DNA from: an uncultured bacterium
GTDB lineage: Bacteria; Verrucomicrobiota; Kiritimatiellia; PWTM01
NCBI GenBank assembly: GCA_937935255.1
Contig: CALGXT010000076.1
Coordinates: 1,658 to 65,657, forward strand
Length of the DNA stretch: 64,000 nucleotides
Reading direction: 5' to 3'
This document shows positions 139 to 59,194 of the stretch, piece after piece; the first letter of the stretch is position 1, and every line of letters begins with the position of its first letter. Position numbers and translations under genes: made by a program. The notes under the pieces were generated by a model. It had not been told where the DNA came from. It worked only from the letters and a program-made list of their open reading frames with translations, and made no database searches.

Positions 139-188
139 TTTCCAACCCTTGGAAGCTCCGAGGGCGGTTTTTTCCAAAGCTTGGAAAA
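139..188. repeat. pair of palindromic repeats TTTCCAACCCTTGGAAG / TTTTCCAAAGCTTGGAAAAC (locus A)
   Basis: Same motif family as at 13849, 40961 and 59141, in the same orientation. The spacer is 12 nt. Confidence 0.8.
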
Positions 189-13848: not shown

Positions 13849-13899
13849 TTTTCCAAGGGTTGGAAGTAAACCCGCCACAGTTTTCCAAGCCTTGGAAAC
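13849..13899. repeat. pair of palindromic repeats TTTTCCAAGGGTTGGAAG / TTTTCCAAGCCTTGGAAAC (locus B of a four-locus family)
   Basis: Read directly from the sequence, immediately after the ileS stop. Each copy has 6-8 bp inverted arms around a 3-nt centre; the spacer between copies is 14 nt. Confidence 0.8.
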
Positions 13900-28922: not shown

Positions 28923-30716
28923 TTACTGTATCAATAAAGCTGGCCAATCGCCGCCGATGAGTTGCTGCAACTCGCGCATCCGTGCGCGCTGCCGGTAAAT
29001 ATCGCGCGGAAGGCAGTCGTGGGCCTTGCACAGCGCCGCCGCGTATCCTACCGCGACGCCCATCTGGCCGGTCGTGTTCATCACGCGCGAACTGCCCAGC
29101 GCCACGTGGGTGACGCTGACGTTGCGGCCGGCCATGAAGAGGTTCGGAATGTCGCGCGAATACAGGATGCGATACGGGAAGTACCATCGGGCGACTTTCT
29201 GATTCGTATACTTCGAACGATAGCTGACGTCGGTCGGGTAGTGCAGATCGATACCCCAGGTGGCCGTGCCGACGGCGTCCTCGAAATAGCGGCCCTGCTC
29301 GATATCGCTCTGGGTCAGCACGTAATCGCCCATCAACCGCCGCGACTCGCGTTTGCCCGCCACGTAGGGCACCCATTCGAGCGCCAGCGCCGCGTTCGCC
29401 GTATTCCGTTTCGCGTTGAAAAACGTTCCGTAGATCGCCCGCAGCAGATGGTCGCGGATGGCCTCGGCGTCTTCGATCGTGTCCTGATGGAAGCCCGCTT
29501 CCCAGTTCCAGTTGCCGCCCGTTTCCGCCGCGGCGCCGGCCACGGTCAACGCCCAGGGAACCTCCGGAAACGTCTGCGGCGAATCCATCCGACGCGAGCG
29601 CCACATCAGCGAGTTGCCCATCGTCATCTCGTCGGCGGCCGCCGGCGCGAGCGATTCGCCGAACTCGCCGGCCGCCTCGCGACCCATGCGATACGACGCG
29701 CCCGCCCAGAAGCCGATCCAGCCGTCCCCCGTGCAGTCCGCGAAGAGCGGCGCGCGGAAGCGGCGGCGTTCGCCCGAGTCCACGCGCCGCGCGTCCACCG
29801 CCCGGATGCGCCGCCCGACGCCGGTTTCAACCCCGTAGGCGCGCCAGCCGGTGAACAGACGCAGGGTCGGATATTCGGCCACGACGGCCATCCGCGCGGC
29901 ATCGGCGGCCGCCGCTCTCGGATCGGTGTTGGTGAAGTCGTTGGCGACAGCGCTCACGATGCGATGCCGCTTCTCGCCCTCGGTCTTCACGCGAATCTCG
30001 CCGCTGGCGTTGCCGCCGAGCACCGGGCGATCCTGGATCAGTGCCACCGAAAGCCCGCGCTCGGCGGCCGCGATCGCGGCGCAGGTGCCCGCGATGCCGC
30101 CGCCCACGACCACGAAGTCGAAGTCCATGACTTCTTCGGGAGCGCCCGTTTCGCCGCGACGCTCCGCGCGCCACGCGCGCAAGGCGTCGCCCGCGGCCGG
30201 CGGCGGTCCGGCCGCCGGATCGTCGGCGAAATAAATCGCGTCGCAACGCCCATCAAACCCGGTCAGGTCGCGCAGGCGCAGCTCCACCGCCGCGGCGTCG
30301 AGCGTCACCGTGCCGCCGTCCACCCAGCCCCACGCCGGCGGGGCTACGCCGAATATCGCCGGGAGCGCCGCGCCATTGACCCACACCTGAAAGCGACCCG
30401 GCTTTTCGCCATCGAAGTCGGGCGTCCAGTCGCGCGTCCGCACCCAGATCCGCCAACGGCCCGGCGCGGGCAGCGTTACGGTCGTCACCGCATCCGCCAC
30501 CGGAACACCCAGTCCGTGCGCCAGCAGATACGGCGAGCCCATCGCCTCCACGAATTGCGCGTCCACCGACCAGCCGCCCTTCTCCGTAAACGCCTCGGCC
30601 TCGATCAGAACACCCGCGGCGGCGACCGGCCGCGGCGAGAAGAGCAAAATCGCGCCGAGGAAAAACGCGTGACCGAATGCGCGCGCCCGCCCGAGCGCCG
30701 GCCGCAGATCGCTCAT
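28923..30716 (-). CDS. FAD-dependent oxidoreductase with N-terminal carbohydrate-binding-like domain
   Basis: The ORF starts MSDLRPALGRARAFGHAFFLGAILLFSPRPVAAAG, a signal peptide. The FAD dinucleotide-binding motif DFDFVVVGGGIAGTCAAIAAAERG is present. This family is commonly found in polysaccharide utilisation loci. Confidence 0.75.
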   Translation of the reverse strand: MSDLRPALGRARAFGHAFFLGAILLFSPRPVAAAGVLIEAEAFTEKGGWSVDAQFVEAMGSPYLLAHGLGVPVADAVTTVTLPAPGRWRIWVRTRDWTPDFDGEKPGRFQVWVNGAALPAIFGVAPPAWGWVDGGTVTLDAAAVELRLRDLTGFDGRCDAIYFADDPAAGPPPAAGDALRAWRAERRGETGAPEEVMDFDFVVVGGGIAGTCAAIAAAERGLSVALIQDRPVLGGNASGEIRVKTEGEKRHRIVSAVANDFTNTDPRAAAADAARMAVVAEYPTLRLFTGWRAYGVETGVGRRIRAVDARRVDSGERRRFRAPLFADCTGDGWIGFWAGASYRMGREAAGEFGESLAPAAADEMTMGNSLMWRSRRMDSPQTFPEVPWALTVAGAAAETGGNWNWEAGFHQDTIEDAEAIRDHLLRAIYGTFFNAKRNTANAALALEWVPYVAGKRESRRLMGDYVLTQSDIEQGRYFEDAVGTATWGIDLHYPTDVSYRSKYTNQKVARWYFPYRILYSRDIPNLFMAGRNVSVTHVALGSSRVMNTTGQMGVAVGYAAALCKAHDCLPRDIYRQRARMRELQQLIGGDWPALLIQ

Positions 30717-30717
30717 T

Positions 30718-30812
30718 GCGCGCTGTAGACGCGGGCGTTGACCGCGTCGTTCCTCGCGTTCCCGGCTCGCGCCACGCTCACCGCGGCCAGCGGCCGCGGC
30801 TACAGGGCGGGC
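30718..30812. repeat. structured bipartite element X1: CTGTAG + hairpin A (GACGCGG..CCGCGTC) ... hairpin B (CCGCGGCC-AGC-GGCCGCGG) + CTACAG
   Basis: Seen directly, immediately upstream of the FAD oxidoreductase start. The same A and B blocks recur at 34936-35017 with about 90% identity. Confidence 0.6.
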
Positions 30813-30952
30813 ACGGATTGCATGTAATACGTCAGCACGGCGCCGACCGGCGAGGCCGCCGGTCCCACAATGCTCACGCCGTGGCGTTGTAGGACAGGCC
30901 GCCGGCCTGTCGCTCCCCCGTGCCTGACGCATTACGACCGCATGGTCTTCGC

Positions 30953-33310
30953 TCATTGTTCATTCTCCACGCGAAGCTCTGTGTCGGAGTCCGGTGTCAG
31001 GTCGATTTTCACGGTCACGTCGCCGTCCGCCAGGGCGAACTCCACCGGGCGGCCGTCGCGCAGGACGCGGATCGGACCGGTCAATTCCACCGGCCGCGTG
31101 AACACCGCCTCCAGTTCCATCGGATCGCCGGTGTGCGCCAGCCGCACGACCAGCCGCCGCGGTTCGCTCACGCCGGAAATCAGCACGCCGCCCGGACCGC
31201 GGAGCGAGGAAAAAGACACCCGCCGGCGCCGCCAGTCCGCCGGCATGCCCCGGCCGACAAACACGCGCGGGCGCCAGAAGTCCGGCAACACGACCTGCTC
31301 GCAGGCCGCCGTCAGAAAGGCGCCGTGGGCCGTTTCGAACGGCGGCAGCGCGGCGTGGCCGACCAGCGACATCTCCTGAAAATAACCCGGACCGTACGTC
31401 CGGCATTCGATCGTGTCCGCCATGAACGCCTCGGCCCGATCCGGCCGCCCCAGCCGAATCTCGCTCGAGGCCAGGGCGCTGTTGAACCATGCCGGATTCG
31501 CGCTTTCGCCCGGAACAACCTCCCGCCGGCTGTTCCGGAACGCGGCGTCATCGAGATATTCACCGGTCTCGGCCAGATAATTGCCGATCGCGAACCAGTC
31601 GGTCGTGTGCTGGCCCGACGCCGCGCCCCGCCAGGCCGGATAGCGGCCGTCCAGAACGGGCAGCCGGATTCGCGCGAGCGCCGCCCGCCAACGCTCCTGC
31701 CGATCGGGGTCCACCCCCAGCCGCGCGGCGTAATCGACGGCTTTCCGTATAACGGTCATAAACAGAATGACCGTCGCGGCGAAATGCGGACGCGGTTCCT
31801 CGCCCATCACGTCGGTTTCGACGCCGCGCAGCAGCAGCTCGCCGTCCGACTCAAAAAAGCACTCCGCCAGCGAATAATCGGCCACGCGCCGAAGGATCGG
31901 ATACACCGCCTCGCGCAGCAACTGCAGCCGATCGCGCCCGGCCAGCTCGAACAGCCGCATGGCCAGCAGCGCGCGATTGGCGTCGGACATCGGCGCGCGG
32001 TCGCGTTCCGGCGGCACCACCGCCTCCCCGTTATACGTCAACATCCAGGGGAACGGCCGGCCCGACGGACGCATCACCCGCGCCATCCAGCGCGCGTGCG
32101 CCTCGGCTTCGGTCCAGAGGTTGGCGCGGGCGACGCCGTCGATGATGTAGTGGTGATCGTGGAAATTGCTCGCGGCCCAGCCGTTCTGATGGTTGAGCAG
32201 AAACTGAACCGTGCCGCCGAGGGCATGGTCGTCTCCGCAACGGAGCAGGTAGGCGGACATGCGATGGAGAAAGTGCCGCCGCACTTCGTACTCGTTCGGC
32301 GCTTCGACCTCGATGTCCGCCGTCCGCGCCCAGAAGGCCCGGAAATCCTCGATATGGGCGGCCCGCGCGCGCTCGTGGCCCGCGCGGTCGAACGCTTCCA
32401 GTTCCGACTCCAGCTCCGCCCGAACTTGCGGCGCCCGCTCCACCGCCGACCCGGCGAGGCGGCGAAAATCCAGCCGCAGCCAGGCTGTCTGTTCCGACGC
32501 CAGCGGTCCCCGCATCGTCGCCGTCAACCCCTCCGGGGTCGCTTCGGCGGACATCCCCTCCGCCGCGATGCCATACACGATCGTGTAGGGCTCGGACGGC
32601 TTGAATCGGGACGCCGGAGTGATCGAGGCAACGAGCGTGCGCGCGCGGACATCTATCGCGCCGGGCTGGTCGAACAGCGGCAGGCCGTGGCGGGTCTGCA
32701 GGACGAGCCGGACGTTCCATTCGAAATCGCCGACGGCGGATGCGGCCGCCGCCCGGTGCAGTTTCAAAAAGACCGTCTCGCCGCCGTGGGGCGCGAAGGC
32801 CTCCAGGGTCAATCGGCCCGGCCGCGCCTTGGGCAGAACGCCGCGCCGGTTCAGCGAGTAAGACGTGCGGACCGTCGCGGTGCGAAGGTCCCAGTCGCGA
32901 CGCCAGGAACCCGCGAAGGCGCGCAGCTCGTCGCCCGCGATCGTCCGACTGCCGAACGCGAGTTCCTGCGTCAGATAGCCCAGCGGCATAAAATTCCGCT
33001 GCCCGTAGCGATTTGTCGCGGGATCGAATTCGGCGCTGCCCGAGAACGCGATCTCGTCTTCCCAGAGGTGGGAGCTGACGAGGCCGGATCGCAGGATGTA
33101 GAGATCGCTCTGCGTGCTGTGCCAGGGCGCGGCCCAGCAGCGGTAATGCGCGGCCAGCCGATCCGGCAGGCTCTGCAGGCCGGCCGCGTCCAGGCCGATG
33201 CCGAAGCCGCCGGACCCGATCAGCGCGGGATATCCGAGCGCCGGCAGCGCATCGGATTCCTCGACGACCGACCACGCGTCGAGCCGGGTTGCCTGGGTGT
33301 CCTTGAACAT
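30953..33310 (-). CDS. hypothetical protein, putative (alpha/alpha)6-type glycoside hydrolase
   Basis: A 785-aa ORF with no signal peptide. It is Trp/His-rich (for example LLNHQNGWAASNFHDHHYIIDG), suggesting a six-hairpin glycosidase fold. The family is unclear. Confidence 0.45.
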   Translation of the reverse strand: MFKDTQATRLDAWSVVEESDALPALGYPALIGSGGFGIGLDAAGLQSLPDRLAAHYRCWAAPWHSTQSDLYILRSGLVSSHLWEDEIAFSGSAEFDPATNRYGQRNFMPLGYLTQELAFGSRTIAGDELRAFAGSWRRDWDLRTATVRTSYSLNRRGVLPKARPGRLTLEAFAPHGGETVFLKLHRAAAASAVGDFEWNVRLVLQTRHGLPLFDQPGAIDVRARTLVASITPASRFKPSEPYTIVYGIAAEGMSAEATPEGLTATMRGPLASEQTAWLRLDFRRLAGSAVERAPQVRAELESELEAFDRAGHERARAAHIEDFRAFWARTADIEVEAPNEYEVRRHFLHRMSAYLLRCGDDHALGGTVQFLLNHQNGWAASNFHDHHYIIDGVARANLWTEAEAHARWMARVMRPSGRPFPWMLTYNGEAVVPPERDRAPMSDANRALLAMRLFELAGRDRLQLLREAVYPILRRVADYSLAECFFESDGELLLRGVETDVMGEEPRPHFAATVILFMTVIRKAVDYAARLGVDPDRQERWRAALARIRLPVLDGRYPAWRGAASGQHTTDWFAIGNYLAETGEYLDDAAFRNSRREVVPGESANPAWFNSALASSEIRLGRPDRAEAFMADTIECRTYGPGYFQEMSLVGHAALPPFETAHGAFLTAACEQVVLPDFWRPRVFVGRGMPADWRRRRVSFSSLRGPGGVLISGVSEPRRLVVRLAHTGDPMELEAVFTRPVELTGPIRVLRDGRPVEFALADGDVTVKIDLTPDSDTELRVENEQ

Positions 33311-33484: not shown

Positions 33485-34750
33485 TCACGCGCGGTTGCGC
33501 TTACGCAGACCGGCCGCGCCGACCAGCGCGATACCCAACAGGGCCAGCGTACTCGGCTCAGGAATCAGGGTCAGGTCGCCGCTACCGGTATCGAAGGACC
33601 AGTCTCCGCTGCTGTATTTTCCACCGCCATCATGGACGAAGACAGTGTCGTTCGTGAAGGCAAGCCCAAAGTTGCCGCCGAAGGTTGCAGACAGGCTGGC
33701 CACATTCACCAGATTCCAAGTGCCCGATGTGTCCGTCAGCCCCGAGATATCGAGGCGGAAAAGCCCATCGAAGATCGCCGTGCCTGCACCGTCAAATTTG
33801 TTCGACGCGTTGCCGTTGTTTATTACAAAGCGGGACTCGCTGGCGGAGGTGAGGCTGAGGGTTCCGTCATTCACCTGCGTGTCGCCGACATAGGTGTTCA
33901 CCCCGGACAGCGTTAGGGTACCGGCGCCGCTCTTGATCAGGCCACCGCTTCCGGCATTCGCGAGCCCAAGGGATATTCCGATGTCATAGGCTTGGGTGTC
34001 GATTCTCGCCCCGCCATTCCCCACGTTCACAATGGGTGCGCCACCGGCACCGGCCGTGAGAAAAGATGCGTTCGTTGCGCCGGCGCGGAGCGTGCCACCA
34101 TCAAGGTTGATGGTGCTGGTGGCATAGGCGGTCGGACTATTATCCACAAAACCGTTGACGGTCAATATGCCGCCGGTGAGATTCACGATTTGACTGTTGC
34201 CGGTTCCGGCAATAGCGCCAGACCGTCCAAAATGGATAGTGCCGAGCGTAGCACTTCCGCCGCTTACCGAGAGGGTGGCGGTGGTGTTGCTTTGAGTTCC
34301 ATACAGCATGTACATGATGTTGTTGGCGGCAAAGGTTCCGCCTTCAACGGACAACGTTCCGCTTACTCCGTTGCCAATCAGGCTGCCGCTTGATCCATTT
34401 GTTGTGAGGGAGCCTCCCTGCACGCGCAGAATGCCAGCGGAGCCTTGTCCGACCAAAAGACCTAGTGCAGTCGAACTGAACGAACGAGTTCCTTCACCCG
34501 CATCGTAGATCAGTTCATTCGTGGCGGCATTGCCAATATTCCAGCGAATATTGCCGGAAGTGGCAGTGGCCGCCGCAGCATTGTTCCAGTTCGCACCTGT
34601 CCCCCAATCCGTGCTCGTGGCACCCGTCCATGTGTATTGCGTCTGCGCAAAGACACCGAAGGGAGCGAGGGTTAGAAGCAGCGCAGCGAGGGCGCCCACC
34701 GCCGGAAACCGCGCGCGTGTCGTGAGGTATCTATGGTTATTCATGTGCAT
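33485..34750 (-). CDS. PEP-CTERM domain repeat protein (exosortase substrate)
   Basis: The N-terminus has a signal peptide, and a GAAGGAGA RBS lies upstream. The body is Gly/Thr/Ser/Asn-rich beta-helix-like repeats (GGTL, GAGT and similar). The C-terminus (IPEPSTLALLGIALVGAAGLRKRNRA) is a canonical PEP-CTERM sorting signal. Confidence 0.75.
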   Translation of the reverse strand: MHMNNHRYLTTRARFPAVGALAALLLTLAPFGVFAQTQYTWTGATSTDWGTGANWNNAAAATATSGNIRWNIGNAATNELIYDAGEGTRSFSSTALGLLVGQGSAGILRVQGGSLTTNGSSGSLIGNGVSGTLSVEGGTFAANNIMYMLYGTQSNTTATLSVSGGSATLGTIHFGRSGAIAGTGNSQIVNLTGGILTVNGFVDNSPTAYATSTINLDGGTLRAGATNASFLTAGAGGAPIVNVGNGGARIDTQAYDIGISLGLANAGSGGLIKSGAGTLTLSGVNTYVGDTQVNDGTLSLTSASESRFVINNGNASNKFDGAGTAIFDGLFRLDISGLTDTSGTWNLVNVASLSATFGGNFGLAFTNDTVFVHDGGGKYSSGDWSFDTGSGDLTLIPEPSTLALLGIALVGAAGLRKRNRA

Positions 34751-34935
34751 GTCTCCTTCATCTTCTTTGACATTTTTCGTCTTGCTTCCCGCCGCGCCCT
34801 TGCCGGCGCACACCGCCGCAGGGCCCCATTATCGAGCCTACCCAGCCCAACAATCATGCGCACGATGCGCTTCCTCAAGCCGCGCCGCAAATTAATTATA
34901 AACTTTATCTGTAAAGCCTATTCCCGCGCCAGTTT

Positions 34936-35017
34936 CGCCGCGGCCGGCGGCCGCGGCTACAGGTGCCGATTCGCTGGGCGTCTGCTATAGACGCGGGCGC
35001 TGACCGCGTCCGCTTGC
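34936..35017. repeat. bipartite element X2: hairpin B ... hairpin A (permuted copy of X1)
   Basis: ccgcggccggcggccgcggctacagg and ctatagacgcgggcgctgaccgcgtc match the X1 blocks at 30718-30812 in the opposite block order. It lies upstream of the PEP-CTERM gene. Confidence 0.6.
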
Positions 35018-40960: not shown

Positions 40961-41009
40961 CTTCCAACCCTTGGAAAAATTTCGCCAAAGTTTTCCAAGC
41001 CTTGGAAAC
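40961..41009. repeat. pair of palindromic repeats CTTCCAACCCTTGGAAAAA / TTTTCCAAGCCTTGGAAAC (locus C)
   Basis: Located downstream of the accD stop, in the same orientation as the other loci. The spacer is 11 nt. Confidence 0.8.
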
Positions 41010-59140: not shown

Positions 59141-59194
59141 TTTTTTCCAAGGCTTGGAAGAATGAGGCCGTCCATTTTCCAAACCTTGGAAAAA
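59141..59194. repeat. pair of palindromic repeats TTTTTTCCAAGGCTTGGAAG / TTTTCCAAACCTTGGAAAAAG (locus D)
   Basis: Located in the divergent region between the aconitase and ROK kinase starts. The spacer is 14 nt. Confidence 0.8.

Follow-up and report, generated by a model that had tools for sequence, protein, structure and literature searches.

GTAG-tagged REPs, their HH dimers, TT dimers and heterodimers, and the flanking of RAYT genes by these repeats have already been described, including in the PVC superphylum, whose REP families include those of Opitutus terrae and of Planctomycetes (Di Nocera, De Gregorio and Rocco 2013, PMC3733652). Reported effects of REPs include the stabilisation of upstream mRNA and the attenuation of transcription (PMC3733652). 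RAYT cleaves single-stranded REPs at a CT dinucleotide with GTAG as a guide, and no mutation of GTAG is tolerated in the E. coli REPtron (PMC8266576). The two loci described here are very probably dimers of GTAG-tagged REPs (REPIN/BIME/REPtron repeats) that, as we infer, have been spread by a RAYT. Small non-coding repeats of this sort are a familiar form of accessory or junk DNA in bacteria.

The window, i.e., the whole stretch of DNA that was analysed (64 kb, G+C content of 66.5%), contains two blocks that recur at two loci, with two copies each, as the original prediction had claimed. Block A (CTGTAGACGCGGGCGTTGACCGCGTC) is located at 30723-30748 and is matched again, with two mismatches, at 34985-35010, where the tag reads CTATAG; block B (CCGCGGCCAGCGGCCGCGGCTACAGG) is located at 30781-30806 and is matched again, with one mismatch, at 34938-34963 (pattern match in both cases). 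Neither block pattern gave a match in 100 dinucleotide-preserving shuffles. The covariance model R1, run on the 64-kb window with filters off, recovered exactly four units at the two loci with scores of 39.6-44.4 bits; its opposite-strand alignments over these four units did not exceed 20.9 bits, and all the other matches in the window were noise of 13 bits or less. Chance GC-rich palindromes without biological meaning might be expected in a genome of 66.5% GC, since such DNA holds many short inverted repeats (550 pairs), and, over the whole window, a hairpin follows GTAG about as often as it follows other tetranucleotides (8 of 159 GTAG sites, with the GTAG-hairpin signal limited to five sites). 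This explanation has a negligible probability and is refuted by the absence of shuffle matches for either block, by model scores of 40-44 bits against the noise level given above, and by the dozens of near-identical copies found in other genomes and beside RAYT genes.

The hairpins of both blocks are present as they had been described, with a stem of 6-7 bp and a loop of 7 nt in block A, and a stem of 8-9 bp and a loop of 3 nt in block B. Each unit has a size of ~25 nt and consists of YT-GTAG followed by a GC-rich stem of 6-8 bp with a loop of 3-7 nt. As its reverse complement, B reads CTGTAG + CCGCGGCC-GCT-GGCCGCGG, which is the design of A in the opposite orientation, so each locus is a pair of inverted REP units, and because A and B differ in stem and loop both dimers are heterodimers. 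The GTAG tags are located outside at locus 1 (HH dimer) and inside at locus 2 (TT dimer). The order A...B at locus 1 and B...A at locus 2 was correctly noted, and the HH and TT pairing of inverted units accounts for the "permuted arrangement" that had been seen in it: the permutation consists of the two standard pairings of inverted REPs and involves no rearranged RNA. Within one family, A and B form two sub-types that differ mainly by compensatory stem changes and are always mutually inverted.

The HH heterodimer comprises unit A1 as its left half (30723..30750, plus strand; exact pattern match; R1 44.4 bits, E 5e-9; hairpin present in the folds), with the tag CTGTAG, the stem ACGCGG/CCGCGT and the loop GCGTTGA, and unit B1 as its right half (30778..30805, minus strand; pattern match; R1 42.3 bits; hairpin present in the folds), which reads on the minus strand CTGTAG, an 8-bp stem CCGCGGCC/GGCCGCGG and the loop GCT. 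They are separated by an unstranded spacer at 30751..30777 that is pyrimidine-rich beside A (GTTCCTC...) and resembles the TCTTCC tails found behind A units of other genomes (flank comparison across loci). In the TT heterodimer, the left half is unit B2 (34935..34962, minus strand; pattern match with one mismatch; R1 41.8 bits), composed of CTGTAG + CCGCGGCC GCC GGCCGCGG, and it is followed by an unstranded spacer between the two inward-facing tags (34963..34984) and by unit A2 (34985..35012, plus strand; pattern match with two mismatches; R1 39.6 bits), with the loop GCGCTGA and a mutated tag CTATAG (GTAG to ATAG). GTAG is thus present in three of the four units of the window. Given the ATAG tag of A2 and the intolerance of the E. 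coli system to GTAG mutation, A2 is probably no longer mobilisable and probably represents a decaying, immobile relic copy.

A further possible GTAG-tagged hairpin, found in a GTAG-hairpin scan and apparently unrelated, lies in the same intergenic region as the HH dimer (hairpin C, 30887..30911, plus strand; TTGTAG GACAGGCC GCC GGCCTGTC). It was considered as a third member of the A/B family and rejected, with an R1 score of only 10 bits (E 1.8), and no second copy of it was found in the window, in the pattern-seeded loci (L002-L040) or in the loci of FAD-oxidoreductase homologues (L041-L120). An inverted repeat at 30824-30841 / 30918-30935 was likewise rejected as a further repeat family, having no other copies.

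Both dimers are intergenic, with Pfam or gene-call support for the flanking genes. The HH dimer occupies part of a 236-nt gap between two co-oriented genes, 148 nt downstream of the stop codon of a gene for a 785-aa protein with no Pfam match (30953..33310, minus strand; ORF list, Pfam and Logan gene call) and upstream of a gene for a 597-aa FAD-dependent oxidoreductase (28923..30716, minus strand; PF12831, 242 bits; translation and the same Logan gene call). The Logan gene call and a GC3-based start picker agree on the start codon of the latter (ATG, 30714-30716, minus strand), and the CTGTAG of unit A1 begins 6 nt upstream of it. The stop-to-stop open reading frame of the FAD gene extends through the HH dimer. 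The TT dimer is located in a divergent intergenic region of ~830-890 nt, with a LacI-family gene on one side and, on the other, a gene for a PATR and PEP-CTERM protein (33485..34750, minus strand; PF12951, PF07589; translation; likely ATG at 34750), from whose likely start codon it is separated by ~185-260 nt, beyond an AT-rich stretch. From their translations, the FAD oxidoreductase and the PEP-CTERM protein both show a signal-peptide-like N-terminus.

These positions bear on the suggestion, made in the original prediction, of a cis-regulatory RNA or DNA element upstream of two secreted-protein genes. As a structured RNA, it would be an attenuator or riboregulator in the 5' leaders of both genes, where two hairpins and a closing CUGUAG/CUACAG helix would control transcription or translation. 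It is correct that both downstream genes are minus-strand genes whose products have a signal-peptide-like N-terminus, and the element of locus 1 does end 6 nt from the AUG. The proximity to the start holds for the FAD gene alone, since the element of locus 2 is not adjacent to the PEP-CTERM start (~185-260 nt upstream), being at least ~185 nt away from it and beyond an AT-rich, promoter-like stretch; moreover, with the hairpins in opposite order at the two loci, the transcripts would differ in fold. Sigma-70 promoter scans gave no matches in either region.

Folding predictions do include the closed three-way form that had been proposed. The minus strand of the dimers is predicted to form, as single-stranded DNA, either separate hairpins or this three-way form, and the plus strand of both dimers a single long hairpin in which A is paired with B (REPIN-like). 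The three-way fold has several nearly equivalent competitors among the predicted folds and does not differ markedly from shuffles (z = -0.1 to -2.5); all of the fold energies stand out weakly (z = -0.1 to -3.1), and that of the 108-nt leader does not stand out (z = -0.13). Therefore, fold energy alone is no evidence. A search against Rfam, which had been suggested as a check, gave no match at the gathering score over the whole window nor at E<=1 in both intergenic regions. Sequestration of the ribosome-binding site cannot be argued either, as the FAD gene has no Shine-Dalgarno-like motif upstream that could be sequestered; such a motif precedes only 14 of the 41 crudely called genes of the window. 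With regard to termination, no terminator-like site overlaps the units of locus 1, where no U-tract follows the hairpins, and a single weak terminator-like match (hairpin plus weak T-run) covers A2 at locus 2, on the plus strand and with no gene ending there. The number of terminator-like matches is within shuffle expectation, and the units do not have the features of intrinsic (Rho-independent) terminators.

The distribution of the units in other genomes bears on the choice between a gene-bound leader and a dispersed repeat. In a scan with unit A (CTRTAGACGCGGGNNNNNACCGCGTC as query) over one genome per bacterial or archaeal species, 39 loci were returned. Unit A is present in multiple copies in about 20 MAGs and is mostly intergenic there; about 13 of these belong to the PVC group (Kiritimatiellia, Verrucomicrobiota, Victivallales, "PVC group") and about 6-7 to the Alphaproteobacteria, five of the latter being Roseiarcus. 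Single matches in Streptomyces and Mycolicibacterium look like chance. The Verrucomicrobia MAG CALMYG01 carries at least nine exact copies of unit A on six contigs, and related MAGs carry two to nine exact copies on different contigs, which are lower bounds given the fragmented assemblies. The covariance model finds about twice as many units as exact A matches in related MAGs, and in the 277 kb of pattern-seeded loci it gave 103 matches. Most loci have an inverted partner within 130 nt of unit A (e.g., CTGTAG-CCGCGC-GCGATGA-GCGCGG), and inverted dimers and A-B-A-B arrays were observed in loci L014, L017, L020 and L121. The family is small compared to classical REPs, with two dimers in 64 kb and one to nine exact copies in related MAGs.

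According to a crude, home-made GC3-based gene caller, which finds the same FAD start codon as Logan, 40 of the 48 A units fall between genes, compared to 77% of the DNA being predicted as coding, and most of the eight remaining units are marginal overlaps at gene ends. The units are found in both orientations; 25 gene ends have a unit just behind the stop codon, whereas only 17 start codons have one upstream, many of the units in related genomes lying 4-30 nt behind stop codons. The genes downstream of them are unrelated and encode an HD hydrolase, a hexapeptide transferase, an ABC ATPase, DsbA, shikimate dehydrogenase, CbiM, a class II tRNA synthetase, PFK and an FAD monooxygenase. Conversely, no A, B or C units were detected by fuzzy matching at 80 metagenomic loci of FAD-oxidoreductase homologues (562 kb), and R1 gave zero matches in the same 562 kb. 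The closest relatives of the FAD gene of this locus are at most 62% identical at the protein level, and the 80 homologues, with 43-62% identity, are distant ones, so these loci rule out linkage to the FAD gene family and do not extend to very close relatives.

The unrelated neighbours and the placement pattern argue against a leader RNA for secreted-protein genes, as do the occurrence of the unit in both orientations and in arrays, its more frequent position 3' than 5' of genes and its absence from the 80 homologous FAD-oxidoreductase loci. Together with the lack of an Rfam match and the unexceptional stability of the leader, these observations leave a cis-regulatory element tied to the two secreted-protein genes unsupported and largely refute the structured leader RNA, to which a very low probability is assigned. 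The covariation of the stems would fit a structured RNA, but it is equally explained by the hairpin that a single-strand-DNA transposase needs. The preferred reading, that of RAYT-spread REP dimers, accommodates the same distribution: the stem-loop is kept across copies, GTAG stands at its 5' foot, and the units are extragenic and arranged in inverted dimers or arrays.

This covariation was measured in 37 distinct partner sequences, for whose choice only a TGTAG tag and a nearby A unit counted. In these, 84% of the stem cells are paired compared to 24-54% for slid partners, and double-sided (compensatory) changes occur in 34 cells compared to 3-10 in the slid controls; none of 500 shuffles was as good as the observed set for pairing and double-sided changes. 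The pair types are CG (24), AU (8) and GC (2) at columns 7-25, and CG (17) and GC (15) at columns 12-20. GTAG is found on one side of 24 of 27 B-type hairpin bodies, where the tag was not used in the selection, and on four of five A-type bodies in RAYT-derived loci; for the seeded loci, which were chosen with the tag in the pattern, the conservation of the tag in unit A is partly built in.

The link to a transposase comes from loci of other genomes, where the units directly flank RAYT genes (NCBIfam REP_Tyr_transpos) in seven of seven cases, five of them retrieved by protein homology alone. In locus L014 of CALMYG01, a 156-aa open reading frame (1902-2372) begins 13 nt behind an A unit, and further A/B units lie past its stop codon. 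The encoded protein is a REP-associated tyrosine transposase (NF047646, 106 bits against a cutoff of 80; Pfam Y1_Tnp) whose best PDB match is the E. coli TnpArep 4er8 (E 2.5e-9), with which it aligns in the HUH motif and in the tyrosine of the conserved Y-x-x-x-NPV motif. It has 4071 homologous proteins at E<=1e-20, several of which bear the name RayT in their sources. The RAYT of a Roseiarcus MAG (L037), which is 57% identical to that of L014, has an A unit on its 5' side and an inverted A-like unit on its 3' side.

As an independent test, three RAYT homologues were chosen by protein sequence only (from a Kiritimatiellia MAG, a Logan run and a JGI metagenome), which led to five loci. In all five, R1 units abut both ends of the RAYT gene, and none are found elsewhere in the 3-kb flanks; in one of these loci (L125), the RAYT ATG is closely preceded by a perfect homodimer with its GTAG tags outside, and the stop codon is closely followed by a heterodimer. 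Units abutting both ends of a RAYT gene are the defining "REPtron" arrangement. A cognate RAYT flanked by its units is therefore found for the family at loci of other genomes, and no RAYT gene was detected in the 64-kb window by tblastn. Of the options listed in the original prediction, that of a small mobile repeat is the one supported, by the REP design and, in other genomes, by the multi-copy spread and the RAYT flanking.

The mechanism proposed here is modelled on the systems of E. coli, Stenotrophomonas and Marinomonas. By analogy with these, a single-copy HUH/Y1 enzyme (RAYT, TnpAREP), which would be encoded elsewhere in the genome, may bind the folded hairpin on single-stranded DNA, with GTAG as a putative recognition and guide sequence, and may cut and rejoin at a nearby CT dinucleotide. 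In the units of this family an invariant T, usually as CT, is found immediately 5' of GTAG, and this T/CT is a candidate cleavage site. Units or dimers would thereby be copied into intergenic DNA. The copies of the window would be passive products of the RAYT process, and any effect on neighbouring genes would be a by-product; for example, an RNA hairpin might act as an mRNA-decay barrier between the 785-aa and FAD genes, or a hairpin might hinder initiation 6 nt upstream of the FAD AUG.

A co-option of REP units by the host, which would be additional to the REP explanation and would not replace it, could assign such effects a function as mRNA 3'-end stabiliser, as partial terminator between the 785-aa and FAD genes, or as a nucleoid-protein or gyrase site. 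Some E. coli BIMEs have been reported as nucleoid-protein or gyrase binding sites. The HH dimer is suitably placed between two genes of the same strand, 148 nt past a stop codon and 6 nt before a start codon, the many units 4-30 nt behind stop codons in related genomes would fit a 3'-end role, and the A2 hairpin with its weak T-run was flagged as terminator-like; PMC3733652 reviews how REPs contribute to mRNA stabilisation and termination. However, no U-tract lies behind the hairpins of locus 1, the terminator-like match of locus 2 is on the plus strand with no upstream gene to terminate, and the count of such matches does not exceed that of shuffles. Co-option is accordingly rated as rather unlikely, and the co-option of the HH dimer 6 nt upstream of the FAD AUG as a translational or mRNA-stability element is a weaker reading than that of a transfer of the REP-RAYT system between phyla (see below).

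The REP sequence CTGTAG-ACGCGG-GCGNYGA-CCGCGT is shared by PVC-group bacteria and Alphaproteobacteria (five Roseiarcus MAGs and one other), and the cross-phylum RAYTs are 57% identical, i.e., as similar as RAYTs within the PVC group. REPIN-RAYT systems are generally viewed as almost strictly vertically inherited residents. If these MAGs are not binning artefacts, it is conceivable, as a tentative suggestion, that the whole REP-RAYT system crossed phyla by horizontal transfer and re-expanded; if true, such a transfer would be at odds with near-strict vertical inheritance. The R1 model (YTGTAG plus hairpin) and the RAYT clade, most of which is unnamed, allow the movement of REP-RAYT systems between phyla to be tested, and they provide a handle for the cataloguing of these systems in Kiritimatiellia and Verrucomicrobiota, such repeats having been little catalogued in the probably Kiritimatiellia-like lineage of the window. 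The gene content (PEP-CTERM, N-methyl pilin-like, PATR) and the distribution of the REP family point to the PVC group. In annotation, pairs of GC-rich hairpins of this kind should be masked or labelled as REP/REPIN repeats and should not be taken for riboswitch-like regulators or for N-terminal extensions of open reading frames. The repeats also explain assembly breaks at RAYT loci in PVC-group MAGs.

Compared to the GTAG-REPs of PMC3733652, the units share a stem-loop of 6-9 bp with an unpaired GTAG at one of its ends, the mostly extragenic location, the inverted HH or TT pairs, the heterodimers of differing stems or loops, the spacers of 20-100 bp, the arrays and the RAYT genes flanked by the same repeats; they differ in their low copy numbers. 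The stem-loop ACGCGG-GCGNTGA-CCGCGT and its CCGCGS variants were found neither in the text nor in the supplements of that study, and since the peptides that the O. terrae units encode are different (VGPALAAG), these are different families. With the REPINs and RAYTs of Pseudomonas and Enterobacteria, they have in common the long single-stranded-DNA hairpin that inverted REPs form (Bertels and Rainey 2011, PMC3116915) and the flanking of the RAYT by REP dimers, as in L125 (PMC3116915; RAREFAN 10.1101/2022.05.22.493013). Unlike REPINs, the dimers of the window are imperfect heterodimers in which ~21 of 26 positions are complementary, and the host probably belongs to the PVC group and is not a gammaproteobacterium; the dimer of locus 2 also departs from the canonical REPIN by its GTAG-inside arrangement. 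The RAYT aligns with E. coli TnpAREP (4ER8; Messing 2012, PMC3479197) in the HUH motif and in the Y-x-x-x-NPV tyrosine, whereas the proteins as a whole are distantly related (E 2.5e-9). As in the REP/BIME of E. coli (Corneloup 2021, PMC8266576), there is a GTAG tag, an adjacent CT and an alternation of inverted Y/Z-like units; in contrast, the stems are regular here and lack the bulge that the E. coli enzyme needs. In this respect unit B, with its perfect 8-bp stem and 3-nt loop, is closer in look to the Stenotrophomonas REP (PMC8266576). The REP architecture, the dimer types and the RAYT flanking are thus known features, and what appears to be new here is the particular stem/loop sequence.

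The stop-to-stop frame of the FAD oxidoreductase gene (28923–30956, minus strand) stays open across the entire head-to-head REP dimer formed by the first A and B units, up to 30956, and therefore a naive longest-ORF call returns a 677-aa protein, whose 80-aa N-terminal extension is spurious and partly encoded by the repeat. A third GTAG-tagged hairpin, hairpin C (TTGTAG GACAGGCC GCC GGCCTGTC, 30887–30911), lies 3′ of the 785-aa gene, about 40 nt from its stop codon, and is enclosed by the two arms, each about 17 nt long, of an imperfect inverted repeat (GTAATACGTCAGCACGG at 30824–30841 and GTAATGCGTCAGGCACGG at 30918–30935). Its membership in the A/B family was ruled out, as it scored only 10 bits, and no further copies were found in the window, at the loci seeded with the unit A pattern (L002–L040) or at those of the FAD oxidoreductase homologues (L041–L120). 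Hairpin C may belong, as a singleton, to a different REP family, or it may be a terminator-like structure.

Between the second, tail-to-tail dimer and the PEP-CTERM gene, a markedly AT-rich stretch (aaattaattataaactttatctgtaaag, 34890–34925) stands in a region that is otherwise 66% GC; it could serve this gene as a promoter or UP-like region, and a scan for the sigma-70 consensus did not flag it. The PATR/PEP-CTERM gene itself (33485–34813) was missed by a GC3-based gene caller that found its neighbors, which suggests an atypical codon composition, possibly caused by recent acquisition or by low-complexity richness in Gly, Thr, Ser and Ala.

A separate repeat with no relation to the A/B units is dispersed over four sites in the window (139–188, 13849–13899, 40961–41009 and 59143–59193), all four of them between predicted genes. 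Each site carries two copies of the AT-flanked palindrome TTTTCCAAGGCTTGGAAA, spaced about 30 nt from start to start. The pairs could serve as paired operators or as a bidirectional terminator, or could belong to a further repeat family.

Outside the window, most homologues of the REP-associated tyrosine transposase (RAYT) are carried by very short contigs of less than 2 kb (protein matches P0001–P0120; loci L121–L123), and the Kiritimatiellia RAYT at L121 has over 15 arrayed REP units on its 3′ side. REP arrays are evidently assembly break points, and the copy numbers of REP units in MAGs are thus underestimates.

Comparison of loci L015, L017, L018, L020, L026, L028, L030, L032, L033, L037 and L039 with L002–L014 and others showed that REP unit A is common to MAGs of the PVC group and to Alphaproteobacteria (five Roseiarcus MAGs and one other MAG). 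In Roseiarcus, the loop of the REP unit is GCGYCGA, and an A-like unit in inverted orientation takes the place of the B-type partner. Since a RAYT with 57% identity is likewise present in Alphaproteobacteria as well as in PVC-group MAGs, the joint occurrence of both elements suggests a possible transfer of the REP-RAYT system between these phyla.
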